From the NCBI GenBank assembly GCA_942490825.1, contig CALNYG010000004.1:52888-116887 (forward strand): a stretch of 64,000 nucleotides of DNA, read 5' to 3'. Positions within the stretch are counted from its first letter, which is position 1. Each line of letters starts with the position of its first letter. This DNA comes from Candidatus Moraniibacteriota bacterium. GTDB lineage: Bacteria; Patescibacteriota; Minisyncoccia; Moranbacterales; GCA-2747515. The position numbers and the translations under genes were made by a program. Positions 1,795-64,000 of the stretch are shown piece after piece. The notes under the pieces are model-generated. The model was given only the letters and a program-made list of their open reading frames with translations. It was not told the DNA's origin and did no database searches.

Positions 1795-2517
1795 TTAAAA
1801 AGTAATATCACTTGGATAATCTCTTAAAGATACCGACGTTTGAATTACAACCATATTTTGTGCGCCTCCATTTCCATCTTCCCCACCTTGTTCAACTGCT
1901 TCAGTAAACCGATTATCAATTTCTAAAGTAACAGTAACTTTTCCCATTGATTCATGATAAACTTCTGGCTCACCTTCAACTTCATCAGCATCTTCCCTAG
2001 TTGGTGTCATGTAGAAACTACCAGTCACTTTTCCCGAAGTTAATTTCATTCCATCACCTGTATAATTATTATCATAAGCACATACAAATAAATTGCCTCT
2101 ATTAATCTCAACCTTCTCAGTTGCTCCACCAGAATCATACTTTTCTTGAACGACATTTCCCTCCACAGAATAAACTATCAAACTATCATCCTCAAAAGCA
2201 AATTTAAAACATTTTCCCTGTGAGTAGTCATAAGCATACAAGGTTTGAACATAAGCTGTTCCTAAATTTTGATTAGCGCTTCCATCTTCTCCTTCTGGAC
2301 TTGTTGGCAAAGTACTTGTTCTCAATGTTTTAGCTAAATAATTCATCGCAAATTCTGCATCATCAATATTTCTCTGTAAAATTCGAGCATGTCGAGAAAC
2401 TACCACTTGTTTCCCAAAAATTTCAATAACAAGCGCAACGATAATTAAAAAAATAAAAATCGAGACCATCAATTCAATCAGAGTAAAACCTTTTTGTTTT
2501 TTTGCTAAAAATTTCAT
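1795..2517 (-). CDS. type IV pilin-like protein (prepilin cleavage/methylation motif)
   Basis: KKQKGFTLIELMVSIFIFLIIV contains G|FTLIE with Glu+5. Confidence 0.8.
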   Translation of the reverse strand: MKFLAKKQKGFTLIELMVSIFIFLIIVALVIEIFGKQVVVSRHARILQRNIDDAEFAMNYLAKTLRTSTLPTSPEGEDGSANQNLGTAYVQTLYAYDYSQGKCFKFAFEDDSLIVYSVEGNVVQEKYDSGGATEKVEINRGNLFVCAYDNNYTGDGMKLTSGKVTGSFYMTPTREDADEVEGEPEVYHESMGKVTVTLEIDNRFTEAVEQGGEDGNGGAQNMVVIQTSVSLRDYPSDITF

Positions 2518-2523
2518 AATCTT

Positions 2524-3144
2524 TTATTCAATATTTATCCAAGCAGTTAATATAGTCTCTGAATATGTACAATTTTGACCAATTTTACATTTATCTTGAC
2601 TCTCGGGAAATTCTTTGTCATTCCAAACAACCATACTCACAACGCCTTTTTTACCTTCACCCTCGTTACTAATAATAATTCTTCTTTTAAACTTAGTACC
2701 CTCTCCTGAATTTTCATGAGAATAAAATGATTCACCATCAATCTTTTTGAAATATAAATCATAGGAAGATGTTGAACAATCCAAACCATCCAAAAAATCA
2801 AAATCATTTCTAGGCAAATCTGCATCAAAGTTATATTCTACTGTACAATATTTTTTTTCTACTGTTGGAAAACCATTAAAAGCTTCCCCAAAAACACCTT
2901 CTGAACTTTTTTCTGTTACATTGTTATCACGAATATTCCGAATCAATTCCGTTCCCTCCTGAGAAAGCATAGATGCAACTAATAAATCTCGGCTTCTCAT
3001 TGTGTCTTGCATACTTCCTGCCATTAAAGCAATTGAAGCCGTAATTCCAAATGCCAAAACAAACAATGCCAGCATAACTTCTCCAAGTGAAAAGCCTTTC
3101 ATTGTTTTTACTAATCTATTATTTTTTTGTTTTTTTATTTTCAT
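2524..3144 (-). CDS. type IV minor pilin-like protein (PilV-like)
   Basis: TMKGFSLGEVMLALFVLAFGI is a class III signal peptide with Glu+5. Confidence 0.7.
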   Translation of the reverse strand: MKIKKQKNNRLVKTMKGFSLGEVMLALFVLAFGITASIALMAGSMQDTMRSRDLLVASMLSQEGTELIRNIRDNNVTEKSSEGVFGEAFNGFPTVEKKYCTVEYNFDADLPRNDFDFLDGLDCSTSSYDLYFKKIDGESFYSHENSGEGTKFKRRIIISNEGEGKKGVVSMVVWNDKEFPESQDKCKIGQNCTYSETILTAWINIE

Positions 3145-3198
3145 TTTTTATAGTTATAATAGAAAATTTATGTTTTCCTATTATCAGCATTTAGATAA

Positions 3199-3762
3199 CT
3201 ACTCAATTTCATCCACAAAACCAAGCTCTTCAATTCTGCCTGATGCATAAATTACAACTTTATATTTTTTACCCTTTTTTTCTATAATAAATTCTGTTTG
3301 TTCTTCTGCATCTTGATCAATAGGTGTATATGTGGCATGTGGCACAGTAAAAATAATTTCTTTGACACTTACAGACTCCACCCCAACAAATTTAACTGGA
3401 CCCACAAAATCTTCAAAAATATAACCTCCTTCATCTTGACCACACTGTTCATTTATTGATCGTGAAGCATATTTTATATTATAATAAACCCCATCTGCCA
3501 AAGGTTCAACAGAAAATTTAAAAGCACAGGGATAACTACCTTCTTCTTTTTGTTTTCCTGTTAATGCATAGTTTTGAGATTCTCTAAGTGCTCCTGATAA
3601 CTGACGTCCTGCTACTTTTAAAGTATTATTAACACCTCCCTTTGACATACTCACAAGAAGAACCGCAGTCATAATTCCAATAATTGCAATTACTATTAAT
3701 AATTCCACAAGTGTAAATCCTTTTTTGAAATTTTTATTTTTTATATTTTTTTGTTTTATCAT
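3199..3762 (-). CDS. type IV pilin, candidate major subunit
   Basis: FKKGFTLVELLIVIAIIGIMTAVLL. The ATG at 3762 (MIKQKN..) is preferred over the TTG at 3786. First gene of the operon. Confidence 0.75.
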   Translation of the reverse strand: MIKQKNIKNKNFKKGFTLVELLIVIAIIGIMTAVLLVSMSKGGVNNTLKVAGRQLSGALRESQNYALTGKQKEEGSYPCAFKFSVEPLADGVYYNIKYASRSINEQCGQDEGGYIFEDFVGPVKFVGVESVSVKEIIFTVPHATYTPIDQDAEEQTEFIIEKKGKKYKVVIYASGRIEELGFVDEIE

Positions 3763-4083
3763 TTTTTCATTATACCATACAACCAAAGCACCATCAAAAA
3801 ATACATTATTACGTTCAAAAAATAATCACAACACTTAAATTATCCACAGTTAATATTAGCATTTATCACTAAAATAATTAAAATAAATTATATATCATTT
3901 TATTTTTCATAAAAAATTACAAACAAAAATTTATTTATATAATTTTTTAACTAGACATTTAATTTTTCAAATATATAAATATTGCAATCAATCTTAAACT
4001 CAGGTTCAAAATAAAAAAATTGACGAAATCAAACAAAAAAAGTTATTATTGAATTATAAAAGTTTATTATAATATTTGAAAAT

Positions 4084-5859
4084 ATGACGAAATGTTTACA
4101 TAAAAATTGTCACAAAGAAGCTATTTATGAAGACAACTGCATTTTTCATTGTGAAAAAAATGATGAGAGTGGATGGTATATATTAAAAGATAATAAGAAA
4201 AAATGGAATAAAACTTTAGTGAAAAAATTTTGGAAAGAGATCAGAAATAAAATAGAAGATGAAAGTAAAAACGAAGCGTATACTACCCACGATTTTTCTT
4301 TTTATATATTTCCAGAATTTAATAGTTTTTTATATGTTCCTAATTTAGAATCAACAAATAATTTAATTCCGAACGACTTTAAATTTAAAAAAGTTAGTAA
4401 TCTTGAATTTTATGAAACATTAAAAGATTTTAATTTTTGGAAGGCAAATGAACAAATGATCTTTTCAAAAAAAGTAGATTTTTGGGAAGCAAAATTCATG
4501 GGAAATGTATATATACCCTACACAACTTTTTTAAAAGAAATCACATTAAGTAAAGCTAATTTTTTAGAAGAGGTAGATTTTGAGGGATCTCATTTTATTG
4601 AAGAGCTAAAAGTTTGGAACACTAGATTTAATAAAGAGATTAACCTTTCAAATTCAACATTTTCAAATGAAACAAAATTTGATCATTCAACTTTTCATAA
4701 AGAAGTGAGCTTTTTAAATGCATTATTTAAAAAAGATGTTTATTTTTGGAATACTGAATTTTCAAATAATGCTAATTTTGAAAATACCACTTTTTTAAAA
4801 ACTGCTTATTTTAGACGAACTATTTTTTTAGGAAAAACAAAATTTTGGAACACAAATTTTTTCTGGAAAATTTATTTTAGAAGCGTAACATTTTCACCAG
4901 ATCATCAAACATTTTTTAAAAATGTTAAATTTAATGGATTTAGCAAAAACAAAAATGAAATAATCTCAGCTGATTTTCATAACATAATTTTTCCTGAAAC
5001 TGTCTTATTTAGAAAAACAGACTTATCACGAGTTTCATTCTTAGATTCGAATTTAGAAAAAGCTCGATTTGATGAATGTGAGTGGAGTAACTTCAATTAT
5101 TGTTTTAAAAATAAATTAGATGAAAAAGGCAAAATAAAAGAAGTTATAGAATTCAAAAAATCAAAACCTAGAAATGTTTTGTGGGATGAATTTAATATAA
5201 GAGACAACCGTAATACCTGGAAAAGATTCTTCTGGATTTTTTACACAAAGGAAAAAAGAAAATTTAAAGAAATATTTAGGCAAACTGACAAACAAAAATA
5301 CCAACAAGTTGAGAACTTGAATCGTCAATTTAAGAAAAATTTTGATGACAAAAAAGATTATCAAACAGCTGATGACTTTTATATTGGAGAAATGAGCATG
5401 CGTAGAAAAAGCTTTGCTGCAGAAGTCAAAGATATCTCTTTTTGGAGAATAACATTACATAGTTATGGAAAAAGATTTTTTCTCTGGTTTTACAAATGGA
5501 TCTCAAATTACAATTCTAATCCTACTTGGGCTTTAATATGGTTAATTGGAATAATTTTTTCATTCACAATTATTTTTCATATATCTGAATACAAAATTAA
5601 TCCCGTTCAAGAATTTCAATTGTTAAAACAGTCTGCACAAAATAACACTCTCCTAGAATTTACAAAATCAAACTGGCTCAAACCAATTCATTATTCTTTT
5701 ACTTCTTCCATTCCACTTATTAGTTTTCCTGAAGAGTTAGAAAGAGGAACAGATGGAATGAATGGTTGGACAGTATTCTTTCACTATATGCAAGTACTAT
5801 CATCAACGATAGTTTGGGCTCTTTTAATACTTTCTCTTCGTCGCAAATTTAAAAGATAG
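4084..5859 (+). CDS. pentapeptide-repeat protein with N-terminal Cys/His cluster and C-terminal transmembrane region
   Basis: N-terminus is CLHKNCHKEAIYEDNCIFHC. A long run of A(D/N)LxF-like repeats follows (ANFLEEVDFEGSHFIEELKVWNTRFNKEINLSNSTFSNETKFDHSTFHKEVSF...). The last ~130 aa contain hydrophobic helices. Confidence 0.65.
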   Translation: MTKCLHKNCHKEAIYEDNCIFHCEKNDESGWYILKDNKKKWNKTLVKKFWKEIRNKIEDESKNEAYTTHDFSFYIFPEFNSFLYVPNLESTNNLIPNDFKFKKVSNLEFYETLKDFNFWKANEQMIFSKKVDFWEAKFMGNVYIPYTTFLKEITLSKANFLEEVDFEGSHFIEELKVWNTRFNKEINLSNSTFSNETKFDHSTFHKEVSFLNALFKKDVYFWNTEFSNNANFENTTFLKTAYFRRTIFLGKTKFWNTNFFWKIYFRSVTFSPDHQTFFKNVKFNGFSKNKNEIISADFHNIIFPETVLFRKTDLSRVSFLDSNLEKARFDECEWSNFNYCFKNKLDEKGKIKEVIEFKKSKPRNVLWDEFNIRDNRNTWKRFFWIFYTKEKRKFKEIFRQTDKQKYQQVENLNRQFKKNFDDKKDYQTADDFYIGEMSMRRKSFAAEVKDISFWRITLHSYGKRFFLWFYKWISNYNSNPTWALIWLIGIIFSFTIIFHISEYKINPVQEFQLLKQSAQNNTLLEFTKSNWLKPIHYSFTSSIPLISFPEELERGTDGMNGWTVFFHYMQVLSSTIVWALLILSLRRKFKR

Positions 5860-8572: not shown

Positions 8573-8588
8573 GAACAAAATACTAATT

Positions 8589-8727
8589 CATGTCATCCCC
8601 GCGAAGGCGGGGATCCAGGAAAGCAATACTTTAAGTTTTAATACAAACAAAAGTTCATTTGCAAACTTTAAGTTTAATTTTCCTGGATTCCCTTCCACTT
8701 CGCTACGCTACGTACGGGAATGACATG
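8589..8727. repeat. family A nested-hairpin element, copy A1
   Basis: catgtcat-[ccccgcgaaggcgggg]-atccaggaaa ... tttcctggat-[tccc..cgctacgct..ggga]-atgacatg. Confidence 0.85.
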
Positions 8728-10290: not shown

Positions 10291-10448
10291 CACAGGGTCG
10301 TGTTTCATAACCCCACCCAAAACATTTCTGAAAAAGTTTTGCGAAAAAATCAAAAATTGCACATGAACTTTACAAAAACATTATGGAACCAGTTATAAAA
10401 CTGGTTCCTGCGTAAATAATTACCAGAACAGGTTTTATAACCCGTTCC
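10291..10448. repeat. family B hairpin element, locus 1 (three hairpins)
   Basis: ggaaccagttataaaactggttcctgcg, gaacaggttttataacccgttcc and a degenerate cacagggtcgtgtttcataaccccaccc. Confidence 0.7.
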
Positions 10449-10694: not shown

Positions 10695-10710
10695 GAACAA
10701 AATACTAATT

Positions 10711-10849
10711 CATGTCATCCCCGCGAAGGCGGGGATCCAGGAAAGTAATACTTTAAGTTTTAATATAAACAAAAGTTCATTTGCAAACTTTAAGTTTAAT
10801 TTTCCTGGATTCCCTTCCACTTCGCTACGCTACGTACGGGAATGACATG
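10711..10849. repeat. family A nested-hairpin element, copy A2
   Basis: Near-identical to A1. Confidence 0.85.
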
Positions 10850-13385: not shown

Positions 13386-14429
13386 ATGTCAACCCCCAAA
13401 TCTCCAAACAAACAAATAACCATAATCGGACCAACAGCCTCAGGAAAATCCAACATCGCCATAGCTTTAGCCAAAAAAAATAAAGGCGAAGTCATCAGCT
13501 CAGACTCACGTCAGATTTATCGTGAATTAAATATCGGGTCGGGCAAAGAACCAGGAAAATTAGAAACCATTTACTATGCAAAAAATGGCGATTTTAAAAT
13601 TGTAAAAAACACTAACCAAAGATTCGACCTTCGGATACCCGAAGGTCGAACCTTGAAAAAGGTTTACATCTGCGAAAAAATCCCCCACTACATGATCGAC
13701 ATCGTCCATCCCAACACAATTTACAACGTCGAAAAATTCGTAAAGAAATCAAAAAAAATACGAAAAGAAATTTGGCAACGAAACAACTTACCAATAATTT
13801 GCGGTGGCACAATGTTTTGGGCTCAAGCTTTAGTCGAAGAACAACAATTCCCCAAAGTATTACCCAACGAAAAACTCCGTCAAGAATTATCAAAAAAATC
13901 CAAAGAAGAAATTTTTAATATTTTAAAAAATTTAGACCCAGAAAGGGCTGAAGATATTATTAAAAAAAATGAAATCAATAATTTAGTCCGTATAGTTCGT
14001 GCCATTGAAATCGCCACAGAATTAGGTAAAGTTCCCAAAATTAAAAAAAATGGAAATAAACAAAATGAAAATAATCTAATTATTTCCGTCACTCATCCAA
14101 AAGAATTTTTACACCAAAAAATAGAAAAACGCATGGACAAATGGTTTGACGAAGGAATTTTTGAAGAAATAAAAAAACTTCATTTTGAAATGAAAGTGCC
14201 TTGGGTTAGATTAGAAAGCTTCGGCTTAGAATATAAATGGTGCACTCGCTACGTCCGCGGTCAAATTGATTTTAACGAAATGCGAGAAAACACCATTCGA
14301 GATTTAAAAAAATATGCCAAACGACAAATGACTTGGATTCGCCGTTGGGAAAAATCTAGCACAAAAATTCATCACGTAACTTCCGCAAAAGAAGCTGAAA
14401 AATTAGTTAGTGATTTTCTAAAAAAATAG
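13386..14429 (+). CDS. miaA: tRNA dimethylallyltransferase
   Basis: GPTASGKS P-loop, DSRQIYRELNIGSGK and IPHYMIDIV. It carries an extra segment between these motifs. Confidence 0.9.
   Translation: MSTPKSPNKQITIIGPTASGKSNIAIALAKKNKGEVISSDSRQIYRELNIGSGKEPGKLETIYYAKNGDFKIVKNTNQRFDLRIPEGRTLKKVYICEKIPHYMIDIVHPNTIYNVEKFVKKSKKIRKEIWQRNNLPIICGGTMFWAQALVEEQQFPKVLPNEKLRQELSKKSKEEIFNILKNLDPERAEDIIKKNEINNLVRIVRAIEIATELGKVPKIKKNGNKQNENNLIISVTHPKEFLHQKIEKRMDKWFDEGIFEEIKKLHFEMKVPWVRLESFGLEYKWCTRYVRGQIDFNEMRENTIRDLKKYAKRQMTWIRRWEKSSTKIHHVTSAKEAEKLVSDFLKK
13619..13654. repeat. family C palindrome inside the miaA coding sequence
   Basis: ttcgaccttcgg-atac-ccgaaggtcgaa has perfect 12-bp arms. It is translated as RFDLRIPEGRTL. 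Confidence 0.9.
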
Positions 14430-16301: not shown

Positions 16302-16321
16302 AAAAAAATTATATTATATTT

Positions 16322-16456
16322 ATGTTATCCCCGCGTAGGCGGGGATCCAGGAAAATAAAACTTTAAGATTTAACGTAAACAAAAATTAATTACAAAACTT
16401 TTAATTTAATTTTCCTAGATTCCCTTCCCTTACGCTACGCTCCAGCCGGGAATGAC
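16322..16456. repeat. family A nested-hairpin element, copy A3
   Basis: atgttat-[ccccgcgtaggcgggg]-atccaggaaa ... tttcctagat-[tccc..cgctacgct..ggga]-atgac. Confidence 0.8.
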
Positions 16457-16498
16457 AACTGTGATTGATAAATATTATAAAAAAATATTATAACACAC

Positions 16499-34431: not shown

Positions 34432-34583
34432 ATCATCTCGAGCGTAGCAATAGTGAAATCAAGACCTATCCGCCGAAACACGACAGACAAAAATCTTAAA
34501 ACTTTGTAATTTTTTTAAACTTTGAGATTTATCCGTTCCGCTACGCCTGTCTGCCGACAGGTAGGCTCCAGTCGAAATGACAT
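34432..34583. repeat. family A-related element, divergent copy A4
   Basis: The left arm contains gagcgtagca. The right arm contains cgctacgc plus the hairpin cctgtctgccgacagg, and ends ctccagtcgaaatgacat. Confidence 0.6.
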
Positions 34584-35223: not shown

Positions 35224-35376
35224 CATGTCATTCCGGAAAATAATTTTGTAACGTAGTGGAGAAATTATTTTCCGGAATCTAGGAAATTTTAAGATAAATA
35301 ATAAGCTTTGAATTTTCAACTTTCTTTTATTTTCCTAGATTCTCTTCTTCTCCGCCACGCTCCAGCCGGGAATGAC
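35224..35376. repeat. family A nested-hairpin element, copy A5 (long-arm form)
   Basis: catgtcat-[tccggaaaataatttt..aaattattttccgga]-atctaggaaa ... tttcctagat-[tctc..ccacgctccagccggga]-atgac. Confidence 0.8.
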
Positions 35377-35444
35377 AAAGTAAAATAATTGTAATTTTGT
35401 AATCTAATTAATTTTCGATGATGAGTTTTTGGGTTGTAATTATT

Positions 35445-38988: not shown

Positions 38989-39056
38989 TGTCATTCCAGA
39001 AAATATAATTTGTTCAAGAACGAAGTGATTGAATACAAATTAATTTATCTGGAATC
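38989..39056. repeat. family A element, left-arm hairpin only (copy A6)
   Basis: gtcat-tccagaaaatataatttgt..acaaattaatttatctgga-atc matches the left arm of A7. No right end was found. Confidence 0.6.
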
Positions 39057-44313: not shown

Positions 44314-44350
44314 GTGCCTGTCTGCCGATAGGCAGGCTCGGCGCACGGGC
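44314..44350 (-). repeat. GC-rich 17-mer variant split by a 19-20 nt hairpin insert
   Basis: gtgc-[ctgtctgccgataggcagg]-ctcggcgcacgggc, 53 nt downstream of the Y1 transposase stop. Confidence 0.7.
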
Positions 44351-44402
44351 TATGATACATAATTTTAAAAAAATTATTTCCAAATTTACCCAAAATAAAA
44401 TC

Positions 44403-45110
44403 CTATTCCAAAATAAATTTCTCCAATTCTTTCTTCTCCTTCAAATACAAGGCATTTTTTTCAATAAAATCTTTATAATCCTTTAGATCATAATCAAACT
44501 GCTCTAAAATAACATCTTTATCACATAACATTCCATTTCTTTTTCCAAGATAATCTAAAAGACTAGAATATTTCCAATCTTCATTTTTATTTCCATGAAT
44601 GAAATGATTTTGATTTACATAAGCAGATAGATACAAAAGATATTCATTTGAATCAATGTGAATTGACTTGAATTTTCCTTGAAAAAGTGAGCCTGAACGT
44701 TTGTGTTTTTTGTTAAAATACATCGTGTAAGAAGTTCCTAATTTCTGCATAAATCTTTCTACACCCTTATCTGCGTTTTGTTTCAAAATAAAATGATAAT
44801 GATTTGGATTTAAACAATATGCAACAAATTCAACAAGTTTATTCCTATTCTTAAGTTGTTCTTTGAAATTATTTTCAAACACTCCAAGGTTCGACCTTCG
44901 GGGATCCGAAGGTCGAACCTTTTCACGTTGATAATCTCTATAAAGTTGCATCAATCCATTGCTTTCATCATTCAACAAATTCATATTCAAGATAAATCTC
45001 TTATAATCATCCTCATCCATAAAAACGTTCTTTTTATCAACGCCTCGATTATAAATATGATAAAATTCATAGTTTGCGAATTGCGTTTTTCTCATAAAAA
45101 AATTAAACAA
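44403..45110 (-). CDS. Y1 HUH transposase (IS200-like / REP-associated RAYT-like)
   Basis: YHIYNRGVDKKNVF, the HUH motif NPNHYHFIL and the C-terminal Tyr region LSAYVNQNHF. Confidence 0.75.
   Translation of the reverse strand: MFNFFMRKTQFANYEFYHIYNRGVDKKNVFMDEDDYKRFILNMNLLNDESNGLMQLYRDYQREKVRPSDPRRSNLGVFENNFKEQLKNRNKLVEFVAYCLNPNHYHFILKQNADKGVERFMQKLGTSYTMYFNKKHKRSGSLFQGKFKSIHIDSNEYLLYLSAYVNQNHFIHGNKNEDWKYSSLLDYLGKRNGMLCDKDVILEQFDYDLKDYKDFIEKNALYLKEKKELEKFILE
44886..44921. repeat. family C 36-nt perfect palindrome inside the Y1 transposase gene
   Basis: aaggttcgaccttcgg-ggat-ccgaaggtcgaacctt, translated as KVRPSDPRRSNL. Confidence 0.9.
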
Positions 45111-48204: not shown

Positions 48205-48515
48205 TATGAATCAGTCGTTGAGAAGTTAGTTTAATTCTTGCGATTGCATTGTGAAAGTTTGTTGTTCTTGTTGTTCTTTGGGTAAAACATTTCCCGTAAA
48301 TCAATTTTATCAAAAAAGGAGAAAAAGTGTCTGTAAAAAATAAAACCATTATTTTTACCACTCTTCTAGTTATCTTCATCAAACCTGCACTGAGACCCTT
48401 CACAAAATTGTGTCTGATAGTAAAATTAAATTAATAAATTTAATAATAAAATCATGTCAGACAAGAAAAATAGAACCGAAGAATTATTAGAAAAAAACAT
48501 AAAAAACTGGTATTG

Positions 48516-48959
48516 CTACTCAAATATAGAAATAGCAATTTCTCTGTGCATGAATAGCAAGATTGTATATTCAACCATTTCAATACTTTTAGAATAACAA
48601 TGAGTTTTCCTATGAAATCTTGCTATATAATGTCTTAATTGATTATTCATTTCTTCAACTGTAAAAGTCTCTGCTTTTGTTTGAATGTGCTTATCTTTTG
48701 GTAAAAATTTTTTATAAACATCCCAATGATCTGAACAGTATTTATCGCAATCAATTTTTTGATTTTGTCCCATAATTTTCTTCCAGTTTTTTCACCTCTT
48801 GTCCCTATCACGAAATCAATTATTATTTTACTAGATCTATCAACTGCAAGCCAAATCCAGTGCTTTTTTCTTTTTTAACACAAAAATGCCACATTTCATC
48901 TAATTCCATTTTTTCTATTTTCCAATATTTTACTTCTTTTTTACTTTTTAAAATATTCC
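48516..48959 (-). pseudogene. insB: IS1 InsB-like DDE region with extra frameshifts (copy A)
   Basis: DEMWHF, ..WIWLAVD.. and ..CDKYCSDHWDVYKKF..RKTHCYSKS lie in three different frames. Confidence 0.7.
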
Positions 48960-49214
48960 TTAATTTTTTAGTTGCTTTTTTACCCATCTTAATATACTAA
49001 CGTTACTAACTTTCAGTATTCTTCCTATTGATCTAAATCCTAGTCCCTCTAAATACATTTCAATTGCTTTTTTCTTAATTTCTTTAGGTTTTCCTCTTTT
49101 TGTAAATCTAGAAAAGTTATAGCTACATTCTTTACATAGATATCTTTGTTTTTTATTTACTTTACCATTTTTAACATAATTCTTATTATTGCAATGAGGG
49201 CATTTAATTTTCAT
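48960..49214 (-). CDS. insA: IS1 InsA-like Zn-finger/HTH protein
   Basis: CPHCNNKNYVKNGKVNKKQRYLCKEC plus the helix-turn-helix GFRSIGRILKVSNVSILRW. It ends just after an A AAA AAG heptamer. Confidence 0.75.
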   Translation of the reverse strand: MKIKCPHCNNKNYVKNGKVNKKQRYLCKECSYNFSRFTKRGKPKEIKKKAIEMYLEGLGFRSIGRILKVSNVSILRWVKKQLKN

Positions 49215-50710
49215 TTTTTTGTTTTTAGGTATTTAATTACCTATTCATTTTACATTATCTATAGTTTGGTAGCAATACCAAAAAACTTAAGAGAAAATCT
49301 AGATGATTTATCCATGGATAAATTCATAGGAAAAACAATAGAAACCTTAATGCTAATAGAAAGAGATGAGTATTTAGAAGATATTAATAAAACTAAAAAA
49401 GATAAAGGAAATGGATCATACGGAAGAGCTATGAATTCATTATCAAAAAACTCATTACTTGTTCATATTCCAAGAACTAGAACAGGATTATTCTCTCCAG
49501 CAACACTAGAACTTTTAAAAATTAACAGAGAAAAAGTAGATGAAATAGCTTTATCTTTATATAAAAAAGGAATGACTTCCAATGACATTAATGAATTTTT
49601 AAATGAAATTTTTGAAGAAAACATGTCTCCTGCTAAGATATCTAATTTAGCAAAAGTATTTAATAAATTTAGAATAGCTTGGCAAAATTCCAAATTAGAA
49701 AAACATTACAAAGTTGTTTATGGAGATGTAATTTTCATTACTGTGCGAAGAGGTGATGAATACGCTAAGGAAGGTGTATTTATTGCTTTTGGAGTAAGAG
49801 AAGATAATAGACGAGAATTGCTTTGTTTAAGTCAAAATCCAACCGAATCAGCAGAATTTTGGAAAGAATTATTGCAAGATTTAAGAGAAGAAAGAGGTGT
49901 TCAACAAATAGATTTATTTGTAGCTGATGGATTAAAAAATTTAGAAAATGTATTTTTAGAAATATATCCCCAAGGAGAATTTCAAAAGTGCGTAGTTCAT
50001 AAACAAAGAAATATTTTAAACAAAACAAGACCGAAAGATAAAAAAGAAATAGGAGAAGATTTAAAAGAAATATTTAATAATTTTGAAGAAAATGATACAA
50101 TTGAAAAAGCCTTGAAAAAAGTAAATAATTTTTTAGAAAAATGGAAAACAAAATATCCAAATTTTAAAAATCATTTTACAGAAATTGAATATTATTTTAC
50201 ATATATTAAATTCAATCCTCGAGTAAGAAGAATGATTTATACAACTAATTCAATTGAAAATTTGAATAGGCAAATTAGAAAAACTACAAAGAATAAATTA
50301 TCATTTGAATCTCCCGAAAGATTATTGGACTATGTATTTATGGTTATTAAGGAGTTTGAAGAAAAAAATTATATGAAATATCCTGTTTCTAATTTTAAAT
50401 ATTTTAATAAAATTAAGAAAGGTTAAATGGGCGATGGACACACTTTGTTGAAGGGTCCCCCTGCACTCGCAGATGAAAGGATCGAGGTGCCCAATGAAGA
50501 TCTTGCATCTACTATCAGCGATGTCTTAAATACTGCGCAGGGTAATACTGGAGTGGTTACAGTCAATTATGCGTATGGAGATGGAGAATCTGAAACTTCT
50601 GTCATACGGATAAAACCAACCATCAGGGGAACGGCTGTGAGTGTCACACCAAGTAGTTCCACACTAACTCCTAGCCTAGATGATTGATTAACAACTCGTC
50701 ACATTGTGGC

Positions 50711-50810: not shown

Positions 50811-50931
50811 TGCAGGATCGGGTTTTATAACCCGATCCACACGTTTTTGAATAAGTCTTGCAAAAAAAATTAAACACAACACCAAACCGAAACAAAAACG
50901 TTTAAAACCAGTTGTAAAACTGGTTCCTGCA
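50811..50931. repeat. family B hairpin element, locus 2
   Basis: tgcaggatcgggttttataacccgatcc, a ~60-nt spacer, then ccagttgtaaaactggttcctgca in inverted orientation. Confidence 0.7.
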
Positions 50932-51272: not shown

Positions 51273-51461
51273 ATGTCATTCCGGAAGACATAATTTGTTC
51301 AAGAGCGTAGCGATTGAATACAAATTAGTCTATCCGGAATCTGCACCTTAAGATTGAAGAAAACTCAGAGTACAAGATTCCAGATAAATTATTTTCTAGT
51401 TTTGAAACGCGATAAATCGACGTTTCTACAAAGGAAAATATATTTTCCGGAATGACACATG
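51273..51461. repeat. family A nested-hairpin element, copy A7 (long form)
   Basis: atgtcat-[tccggaagacataatttgt..agcgtagcg..acaaattagtctatccgga]-atc ... [ggaaaatatattttccgga]-atgacacatg. Confidence 0.75.
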
Positions 51462-63221: not shown

Positions 63222-63264
63222 AGCATTTTTATTTTAAAATAAGAACTGATTTTTATATTTTTTT

Positions 63265-64000
63265 GGTATTGCTACTCAAATATAGAAATAGCAATTTCTC
63301 TGTGCATGAATAGCAAGATTGTATATTCAACCATTTCAATACTTTTAGAATAACAATGAGTTTTCCTATGAAATCTTGCTATATAATGTCTTAATTGATT
63401 ATTCATTCCTTCAACTGTAAAAGTCTCTGCTTTTGTTTGAATGTGCTTATCTTTTGGTAAAAATTTTTTATAAACATCCCAATGATCTGAACAGTATTTA
63501 TCGCAATCAATTTTTTTGATTTTGTCCCATAATTTTCTTCCAGTTTTTTCACCTCTTGTCCCTATCACGAAATCAATTATTATTTTACTAGATCTATCAA
63601 CTGCAAGCCAAATCCAGGCTTTTTTCTTTTTTTTAACACAAAATGCCACATTTCATCTAATTCCATTTTTTCTATTTTCCAATATTTTACTTCTTTTTTA
63701 CTTTTTAAAATATTCCTTAATTTTTTAGTTGCTTTTTTTACCCATCTTAATATACTAACGTTACTAACTTTCAGTATTCTTCCTATTGATCTAAATCCTA
63801 GTCCCTCTAAATACATTTCAATTGCTTTTTTTTCTTAATTTCTTTAGGTTTTCCTCTTTTTGTAAATCTAGAAAAGTTATAGCTACATTCTTTACATAGA
63901 TATCTTTGTTTTTTATTTACTTTACCATTTTTAACATAATTCTTATTATTGCAATGAGGGCATTTAATTTTCATTTTTTTGTTTTTAGGTATTTAATTAC
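63265..64000 (-). mobile_element. IS1-family insertion sequence, copy B (runs off the window)
   Basis: Same end ggtattgctactc as copy A, and colinear with it to the window edge. It begins 43 nt upstream of the adhesin start. Confidence 0.85.
63272..63974 (-). pseudogene. IS1 InsA/InsB reading frames of copy B, with frame changes at homopolymer runs
   Basis: ATG at 63974. A T8 run (versus T6 in copy A) breaks InsA. An A AAA AAG heptamer lies in frame before AWIWLAVDRSS. Confidence 0.7.

Follow-up and report, generated by a model that had tools for sequence, protein, structure and literature searches.

Within a 64-kb stretch of DNA from a Candidatus Moraniibacteriota bacterium (hereafter the window; G+C content 30%), we analysed the gene of a Y1/HUH single-strand DNA transposase, encoded on the minus strand at 44403-45095, together with the 36-nt palindrome, termed family C, that lies in frame inside it. 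The internal palindrome is shared family-wide at a conserved position and is no chance self-hit. We consider it probable, from the sequence and a structural model, that the product of the gene is a catalytically intact HUH/Y1 endonuclease/transposase acting on single-strand DNA, and that this enzyme falls in a large clade with its centre in Patescibacteria (Moranbacteria/Parcubacteria) which resembles the tyrosine transposases associated with repetitive extragenic palindromes (REPs), known as RAYTs, and mobilises its own cognate palindrome while an internal copy resides in the open reading frame (ORF). Family C is the likely, predicted substrate of the enzyme and is the only repeat of the window linked to this gene.

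The Y1 transposase and its internal palindrome

The intact ORF encodes 230 amino acids from an ATG at 45095 on the minus strand. The initial annotation had begun the protein at an in-frame TTG 5' of this codon, at 45110; the ATG is the likely start, since close homologues all begin MRKT-. Its assignment to the Y1/HUH transposases, with both HUH and tyrosine motifs, was borne out by a Pfam Y1_Tnp (PF01797) match of 35.2 bits (cut-off 23, E 1.5e-8) and by more than 100 full-length homologue alignments. As read from the sequence, the HUH residues H99-Y100-H101, in NPNHYHFIL, are encoded by CAT TAT CAT at 44793-44801, and the catalytic tyrosine, Y159 in SAYVNQNHF, by the codon at 44619-44621, both on the minus strand. 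Residues H99, H101, Y159 and N163 are invariant among 60 aligned homologues. The Pfam match is restricted to residues 84-163 because an insert lies between the HUH strand and the strand and helix at the N terminus.

An AlphaFold (AF2) model built from a 60-sequence alignment reached a predicted local distance difference test score (pLDDT) of 89.7 and a predicted template modelling score (pTM) of 0.86. In the model, H99-Y-H101 opens a strand comprising residues 100-106, and Y159 is placed on a predicted helix of residues 150-161. By Foldseek, the best fold neighbour in the PDB is 4ER8, in which the E. coli RAYT is bound to a REP hairpin (E 3.6e-6, target TM 0.68). The TnpA structures of IS608, ISDra2 and IS200 come next, and the top 22 matches are all Y1 transposases (4ER8, 2A6M, 2VJV, 2XO6 and others; E 3.6e-6 to 2.6e-3). 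A sequence search of the PDB with a profile of the family gave zero matches at E values up to 1.

The family C palindrome, AAGGTTCGACCTTCGG/GGAT/CCGAAGGTCGAACCTT, is found at 44886-44921 and, as first annotated, is in frame with the gene, where it fills exactly codons 59-70 (KVRPSDPRRSNL). It folds into a 16-bp stem with a 4-nt loop, with free energies of -20 kcal/mol as DNA (z -6.4) and -31 kcal/mol as RNA (z -6.2). The sequence comprises an inverted pair of 13-nt mini-hairpins (AAGGT-TCG-ACCTT) around CGGGGATCCG; as each arm is itself a mini-hairpin, the element consists of one short hairpin unit present twice in inverted orientation, as in a REPIN. Residues 61-70 of the encoded peptide have the lowest confidence of the model (mean pLDDT 60) and lie between helices 48-57 and 65-83, before the strand leading into the HUH motif. 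This predicted placement fits a tolerated surface insertion, in line with the variable-loop option that the initial annotation had offered.

The internal palindrome across the family

A protein search returned 4,724 relatives, most of them 219-226 amino acids long, and those with a named source come from Moranbacteria, Parcubacteria or Patescibacteria; one, P0001, matches the window protein at 95%, and exact-sequence look-ups of these two proteins gave no record. In a profile search of 1.84 billion cluster representatives, 1,146 clusters matched at E ≤ 1e-30 and 11,398 at E ≤ 1e-10, giving a clade of at least 1,146 clusters, clustered at 50% identity. Homologues at 58-70% identity hold palindrome-encoding peptides at the same alignment columns (KVRPSEFRRSNL, KVRPSDIRRSDL, KVQPWASPRLNL and KSSLKDFLKLGF).

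We fetched 80 genomic loci and sought the best hairpin in each gene, 78 genes entering the stem statistics. In most, the best hairpin lies 40-86 nt 5' of the YCLNPNHYH codons, with stems of up to 26 perfect bp, that is, perfect palindromes of 52 nt. Within 100 nt 5' of the HUH codons, the best stem has a median length of 17 bp; stems of 10 bp or more are present in 66 of the 78 genes, of 14 bp or more in 42 and of 20 bp or more in 28. The same genes also supplied 234 control windows, in which the best stem has a median of 7 bp and reaches 14 bp in only two cases. To describe the gene as itself hit by the palindrome, as had been done at the outset, was correct in that the palindrome is present, but it understated a position fixed family-wide in those 66 genes.

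The palindromes of different genes are dissimilar in sequence (for example GGTTCGACC..., GGGACTAAGTCCC..., TGGACATCGAATGTCCA... and GGAGTTGAGCTCC...), and we measured covariation between their arms on a centre-anchored alignment of 30 genes. Paired bases occupy 88.9% of cells, compared with 62.6% in column shuffles, a percentage inflated by the choice of loci for having a hairpin, which does not inflate the diversity of pair types. Changes on both sides occur in 24 of 24 pairs, and compensatory cells number 233 against 85 in shuffles, a count reached in 0 of 500 shuffles. Shifting one arm by 1-3 columns lowers pairing to 24-51%. One-sided (G-U) states are nearly missing from this alignment, which points to a DNA-level constraint or a copying process rather than RNA structure, and RNA structure was rejected as the main explanation on this ground.

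A palindrome could occupy this position without having any role there. Were the enzyme to prefer targets in cis, its own gene would be the nearest, and a permissive loop before the HUH strand would be hit repeatedly, such that the fixed position would reflect repeated insertion and tolerance. Recurrent hits do happen, as follows from secondary palindrome sites past the tyrosine motif and in the C-terminal tail (L045, L060, L065, L067 and P0050) and from locus L062, whose internal site holds half a unit of a second palindrome family beside its own. The low-confidence loop that holds the internal-copy peptide also agrees with such an account, as does the palindrome site in the window's MiaA gene (see below), which is likewise hypervariable and holds other palindromes in other orthologues. 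Of the 63 hairpins of at least 12 bp in stop-to-stop ORFs, however, 47 are centred 31-90 nt 5' of the HUH codons, a single 60-nt interval of a gene of ~670 nt, with eight more just 5' of the ATG and eight at secondary sites past the tyrosine motif or in the tail. Moreover, the internal site is filled in paralogs only ~50% identical, and the arms stay perfectly complementary as their sequence changes, which needs selection or continual renewal. We therefore regard a palindrome without a role as rather unlikely; this account departs from the one we favour only in the role of the resident copy, and the link between enzyme and substrate holds in both.

In the reading that we favour, the ORF-internal copy is a conserved surface-loop feature and a near-perfect Watson-Crick palindrome matching the flanking copies. 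It would act as a resident copy of the enzyme's substrate, like the flanking REPs of a REPtron, tolerated as protein and maintained or renewed as DNA, and it may throttle expression of the gene. The resident copy may serve as a source or 'master', act as a brake on expression, or be only a tolerated hot-spot hit. In a more far-reaching version, which we put forward only tentatively and think unlikely, the palindrome would be an obligatory, heritable 'master copy' of the substrate within the enzyme's own coding sequence. Because a change in the hairpin also alters the enzyme's peptide, enzyme and substrate would then diversify as one locus; the hairpin would also set expression, and the clade would form a distinct RAYT-like class whose repeats have become specialised for the coding DNA of essential genes in reduced, gene-dense genomes.

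Apart from the internal site, the conserved catalytic-tyrosine motif YVNKNNFIH is encoded by a 12-bp quasi-palindrome, GTGAATAAAAATAATTTTATTCAC, in L014, L033, L063 and L009, ~200 nt past the HUH codons, which may be a coincidence of AT-rich codons.

Cognate copies beside the gene and in coding DNA

Cognate copies were sought with the inner 12 nt of each gene's palindrome as the probe, allowing one mismatch. Outside the gene, such sites occur at 0.086 per kb, compared with 0.0066 per kb for probes taken from other genes. A cognate copy lies 4-47 nt past the stop codon in 21 of 47 genes and 15-81 nt ahead of the start codon in 15 of 47, in many of them ~25 nt before the ATG. Single units are common among the copies ahead of the start; doublets make up the internal copies and, in many cases, the downstream ones. 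The relatives thus show a REPtron arrangement plus an extra resident copy inside the ORF. The earlier statement that the gene lacks IS200/IS605-type ends holds for the window copy, near which we found no family C unit outside the ORF, but not for the family, in which many relatives carry cognate units on both sides.

One related locus, L081 (reverse strand, 2442-4619), contains two tandem Y1 paralogs ~1.4 kb apart with a 174-amino-acid ORF between them. The paralogs have different internal palindromes, each with a matching single unit ~15-25 nt before its ATG, and the pair is a natural test case of enzyme-hairpin specificity.

Family C occurs twice in the window at up to three mismatches, where shuffles expect none. 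The second copy, at 13619-13654, is identical at 34 of 36 positions (two mismatches) and lies in frame in the MiaA gene (RFDLRIPEGRTL), in another reading frame than the Y1 copy. In related loci, cognate copies distant from a Y1 gene are also frequently in frame within long ORFs. Metagenome contigs scanned for GGTTCRACCTTYGG-N4-CCRAAGGTYGAACC yielded 33 copies at 32 loci, ~26 of them in long ORFs and three in Y1 genes; by Pfam, the host genes of the dispersed copies encode UvrA, UvrC, ValRS, CysRS, FolD and an aminotransferase. Just two reading frames are used by the metagenomic copies, KVQP..RLNL and GSTFG.PKVEP. The third frame holds a TGA in the A-variant, and it is this frame, open only in the G-variant, that the MiaA copy of the window uses. 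Orthologous insertions from different samples differ by compensatory pairs, as in CysRS (TTCGACC/GGTCGAA in L091, TTCAACC/GGTTGAA in L101), and on one 92-kb contig (L084/L085) a 48-nt stretch of a Y1-internal copy recurs without change in a dispersed copy. Intragenic REPs are already known, notably in excision-repair genes such as uvrA (Di Nocera 2013, PMC3733652).

The MiaA gene (13386-14429) carries a clade-specific insert of ~30 amino acids (LETIYYAKNGDFKIVKN...YIC) at residues about 58-100, which orthologues of ~60% identity do not have. The family C copy sits in the hypervariable centre of this insert; some orthologues carry other palindrome-like peptides there (IRSNLRISEGWTL) and the closest orthologues carry none. 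Close orthologues (72-83% identity) differ by more than one plain 36-nt indel, and the site is recurrent or fast-evolving. These observations suggest that whole protein inserts in genes of the candidate phyla radiation (CPR) may grow out of palindrome insertions.

We propose that the gene stays put and diverges, and that the enzyme would mobilise the short cognate palindrome. On the model of IS608 TnpA and of E. coli TnpA-REP, this enzyme would bind family C mini-hairpins on single-stranded DNA, cut at the hairpin feet and move the doublet elsewhere without target duplication. Selection would retain just those copies in coding DNA that keep the frame and are free of stop codons, which would account for the in-frame copies in MiaA, UvrA, UvrC, tRNA synthetases and FolD.

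Palindromes of this kind could also be unrelated to the Y1 enzyme, having been spread by template switching at quasi-palindromes or by another enzyme, or kept as RNA- or protein-binding structures, with the Y1 gene as one carrier among many. Copies of the GGTTCRACC family are indeed mostly in unrelated housekeeping genes, and the same genomes hold another palindrome family, of 20-21 nt, whose clean insertion polymorphisms are not positionally linked to Y1 genes, so that hairpin mobility there need not point to the window's Y1 gene. Nevertheless, cognate sites exceed non-cognate ones 13-fold around each Y1 paralog, including paralogs within one genome, and cognate units stand at fixed distances from start and stop codons. 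The near-missing G-U pairs speak against an RNA-structure constraint, and local template switching is unable to put the same 40-50-nt sequence at many loci. We judge it very improbable that the palindromes have nothing to do with the enzyme.

The initial annotation had described the window as crowded with hairpin repeats, and further repeats were indeed found, all of them intergenic. Its proposal that the enzyme mobilises these repeats is supported for family C, given the cognate excess in relatives, and is not supported for family A, the RPE-like elements and the 17-mer described below, none of which is carried by any of the 78 homologues. We rejected the 17-mer, the RPE-like elements and a 20-nt hairpin as substrates of the enzyme.

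The 17-mer, GTGCTCGCCGCACGGGC, has nine exact copies (8746, 10868, 14464, 20576, 34312, 35142, 48150, 51510 and 53588), each intergenic and with an A-run before it and a T-run after it. Its sequence resembles that of a bidirectional terminator; in plain terminators, one would not usually expect every copy to be exactly identical. It was not found in 1.33 Mb of related Moranbacteria loci that carry Y1 homologues, which indicates a lineage-specific repeat and does not support the link to the gene that had been proposed. A terminator scan of the region 3' of the Y1 gene made no calls, and Rfam and tRNA scans of the window found nothing.

The 20-nt mini-palindrome, CCTGTCTGCCGAYAGGYAGG (the CCTGTCTGCC... 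hairpin), belongs to a separate repeat family (relatives CCTGCCTGCCGGCAGGCAGG), whose positions in related loci are unconnected with those of Y1 genes. It behaves like an element cleanly inserted between G and CTC with no target duplication. One copy, at 44317-44336, lies 50 nt 3' of the Y1 stop codon, where it splits a degenerate 17-mer copy at 44337-44352 (GTG^CTCGgCGCACGGGC; whole site 44317-44352); another, at 34546-34565, interrupts an RPE-like element at its right end (CGCTACG^CTCCAG). Its relatives form exact 21-nt filled/empty polymorphisms between related genomes (L006, L063, L107, L009 against L019, L077, L014, L104, L041). It was found inside no Y1 gene, and its sites are not tied to Y1 genes.

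Elements of ~140 nt resembling miniature inverted-repeat transposable elements (MITEs) occur at 8586-8725, 10708-10847, 16318-16457 and about 35226-35378, and also at 38989 and 51274-51457; we take them to resemble Rickettsia-type palindromic elements (RPEs). Their ends, TGTCAT(C/T)CCCGCG(A/T)AGGCGGGGATCCAGGAAA ... GGGAATGACA, recur in several related loci, including L002, L039 and L054. Hairpins of the GGAAC(N2)GTTWTAAAAC(N2)GTTCC type, possibly the family A of the initial annotation, occur in pairs in long intergenic regions (10385-10448 and 50815-50838). Both kinds of element are intergenic and show no relation to Y1 genes. Elsewhere in the window, an IS256/Mutator-family transposase gene occupies 49146-50426 (Pfam Transposase_mut, 3.3e-71); its upstream region and 5' part (48508-49240) are repeated at 63264-64000, probably as a second copy at the window end.

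Placement among REP-associated and IS200/IS605 transposases

The enzyme's nearness to RAYTs rather than to IS200 TnpA is supported by model matches: 60 of 60 family members match the NCBIfam RAYT model alone, all under its cut-off, and 0 of 60 match the NCBIfam IS200 model. The earlier RAYT-like label therefore survives in its fold neighbour, 4ER8, and in this sole NCBIfam match, though with a score under the cut-off. Two further RAYT features are present, namely a paralog-specific hairpin repeated elsewhere (the MiaA copy and the cognate excess in relatives) and low-copy divergent genes; flanking cognate REPs or REPINs, as in a REPtron, are absent at the window copy and present in part of the family.

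Could the unit of hairpin, gene and hairpin instead be an autonomous IS200-like insertion sequence (IS), its flanking hairpins serving as left and right ends and the window copy being an immobilised relic without ends? Many relatives have cognate hairpins at regular spacing on both sides, many genomes hold 2-4 Y1 paralogs, and many loci are close to contig ends. The neighbours of the window gene also show no synteny to any of the 80 loci: among 13 neighbouring window proteins, none adjoins a Y1 homologue there, save one weak SerRS match in L061, so the position of the gene is not conserved at such evolutionary distance. Yet the 32 within-genome paralog pairs share 47-78% amino-acid identity (median 59%) and are never near-identical, although assemblies of metagenome-assembled genomes (MAGs), from which these pairs come, can collapse identical repeats; among IS200 copies, the average identity is 99% (Quentin, Siguier, Chandler & Fichant 2018, PMC6006769, Table 1). 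The gene is thus not a recently copied IS, and the divergence of its paralogs resembles that of class-2 TnpA-REP, unlike IS200. Every paralog carries a palindrome of its own, palindromes standing alone at a distance from any Y1 gene are common, and the residue at +4 after the tyrosine is N, so that the Y---Q motif is missing. Nor does any TnpB gene adjoin the Y1 gene, as the initial annotation had recognised; its neighbours encode an EamA transporter and a UvrD/PD-(D/E)XK helicase, the stop codon of which precedes the ATG by 20 nt. An autonomous IS is, in our estimate, improbable.

Several points weigh against the RAYT-like mobiliser that we favour, in addition to the choice of covariation loci mentioned above. 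The window protein scores 29.6 bits against the NCBIfam RAYT model NF047646, whose cut-off is 80. The class-2 tyrosine motif Y---NP is absent, the sequence here being Y159-V-N-Q-N163-H, with an invariant N at +4 and N or H, never P, at +5. A GT[AG]G or CGTC tag at the hairpin foot is also lacking; the feet read AAAAGG, CCTAAGG, CGAAGG, CTTAGGG and similar, with GTGG only at the downstream copy of L059. No clean filled-versus-empty site was found for family C, the MiaA site being hypervariable rather than a simple insertion, and an all-versus-all blastn for family C polymorphisms gave clean 21-nt filled/empty sites for another palindrome family only. Activity here may be low or extinct, since in the window there is no flanking cognate copy and family C has only two copies in 64 kb. 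Lastly, the association was read from MAG fragments rather than from whole-genome co-occurrence, and cleavage and transposition by the enzyme are proposed by analogy.

The family motifs are NHYH, FQ (for WQ), Y-V-N-x-N-[NH]-F (for Y---NP) and a W-YSS motif in the tail. By these motifs the family appears class-2-like and nearest in flavour to subclass 2.1, and a clean member of no described subclass. The system works like RAYTs and REPINs, yet it falls short of several formal RAYT features: it scores under the NCBIfam cut-off, lacks both the NP motif and the GTAG tag and, at the window copy, has no flanking REPs.

Among transposases domesticated along with a mini-repeat population, REP/RAYT systems are the chief example; to our knowledge, they have been studied almost solely in Proteobacteria and a few other phyla. 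Our finding adds a very large RAYT-like clade in the ultra-small genomes of Patescibacteria, set apart by a fixed in-frame cognate palindrome in the gene, by perfect Watson-Crick palindromes despite divergence, and by palindromes largely in essential genes (tRNA synthetases, UvrABC, MiaA). The clade offers a comparative system for enzyme-hairpin co-evolution and for selfish palindromes in coding DNA where intergenic space is scarce. Palindrome-encoded inserts of 12-17 residues would account for some unexplained insertions in CPR proteins, and MAG assemblies probably break at the palindromes. For specialists in mobile DNA, the fixed substrate copy in the ORF and the coding-DNA lifestyle are of note, each ingredient having published precedent.

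With the classical RAYT and REP/REPIN systems (E. coli TnpA-REP, 4ER8, and the Pseudomonas RAYTs) the family shares its fold, its sole NCBIfam match, the pairing of a single enzyme with a single cognate hairpin family, inverted doublets, REPtron-like flanks in relatives, and divergent, non-duplicating genes. Unlike these RAYTs, it scores under the model cut-off (29.6 versus 80 bits), lacks NP after the tyrosine, has a C-terminal tail of ~60 amino acids, and combines largely intragenic rather than extragenic repeats with a resident copy in the ORF. We know of no cognate enzyme for RPEs, unlike which the present palindrome sits inside and beside a Y1 transposase gene. In-frame palindromes in functional genes, including DNA-repair genes (here UvrA and UvrC), are common ground with both intragenic REPs and RPEs (Di Nocera 2013, PMC3733652; Ogata 2000, cited there). 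With the IS200/IS605 TnpA proteins of IS608 and ISDra2, the family shares the HUH/Y1 fold and a presumed chemistry, that is, recognition of hairpins on single-stranded DNA without target duplication; unlike them, it has no Y---Q motif, TnpB or identical copies, and a symmetric palindrome replaces distinct left and right ends.

Compared by motifs, the family has in common with subclass 2.1/TIRYT (RAYT group 1) the NH[YF]H motif, FQ for WQ, an 'SS' serine motif in the tail (W-YSS here) and a length of ~220-240 amino acids (PMC6006769, Table 1). Subclass 2.1 was reported without associated REP-like sequences (PMC6006769), unlike the present family, which has associated REP-like palindromes. The closest precedent is TnpA-Y1 subclass 2.4 (RAYT group 4), in which REPs flank tnpAREP and are also found in frame within the gene, between its HuH motif and its Y motif (PMC6006769). 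Both are class-2 Y1 transposases with cognate flanking REPs, frame-keeping REPs in a peripheral variable region and low-copy divergent paralogs. They differ in the insertion site, which in subclass 2.4 lies between the HuH strand (β3) and αC and in the Patescibacteria family mainly 5' of the HuH strand, between two extra helices, with a few secondary sites past the tyrosine. The motifs also differ, being NH[IFV]H, WQ and YIxNNP with GT[AG]G-tagged 'double foot' REPs in subclass 2.4, and NHYH, FQ and YVNxN[NH]F with no GTAG tag seen in the present family. Subclass 2.4 occurs in Cyanobacteria and Bacteroidetes, and Patescibacteria, the hosts of the present family, go unmentioned in the main text of PMC6006769. 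Beyond what subclass 2.4 displays, the internal copy is nearly universal in the present family, and its repeats strongly favour coding DNA.

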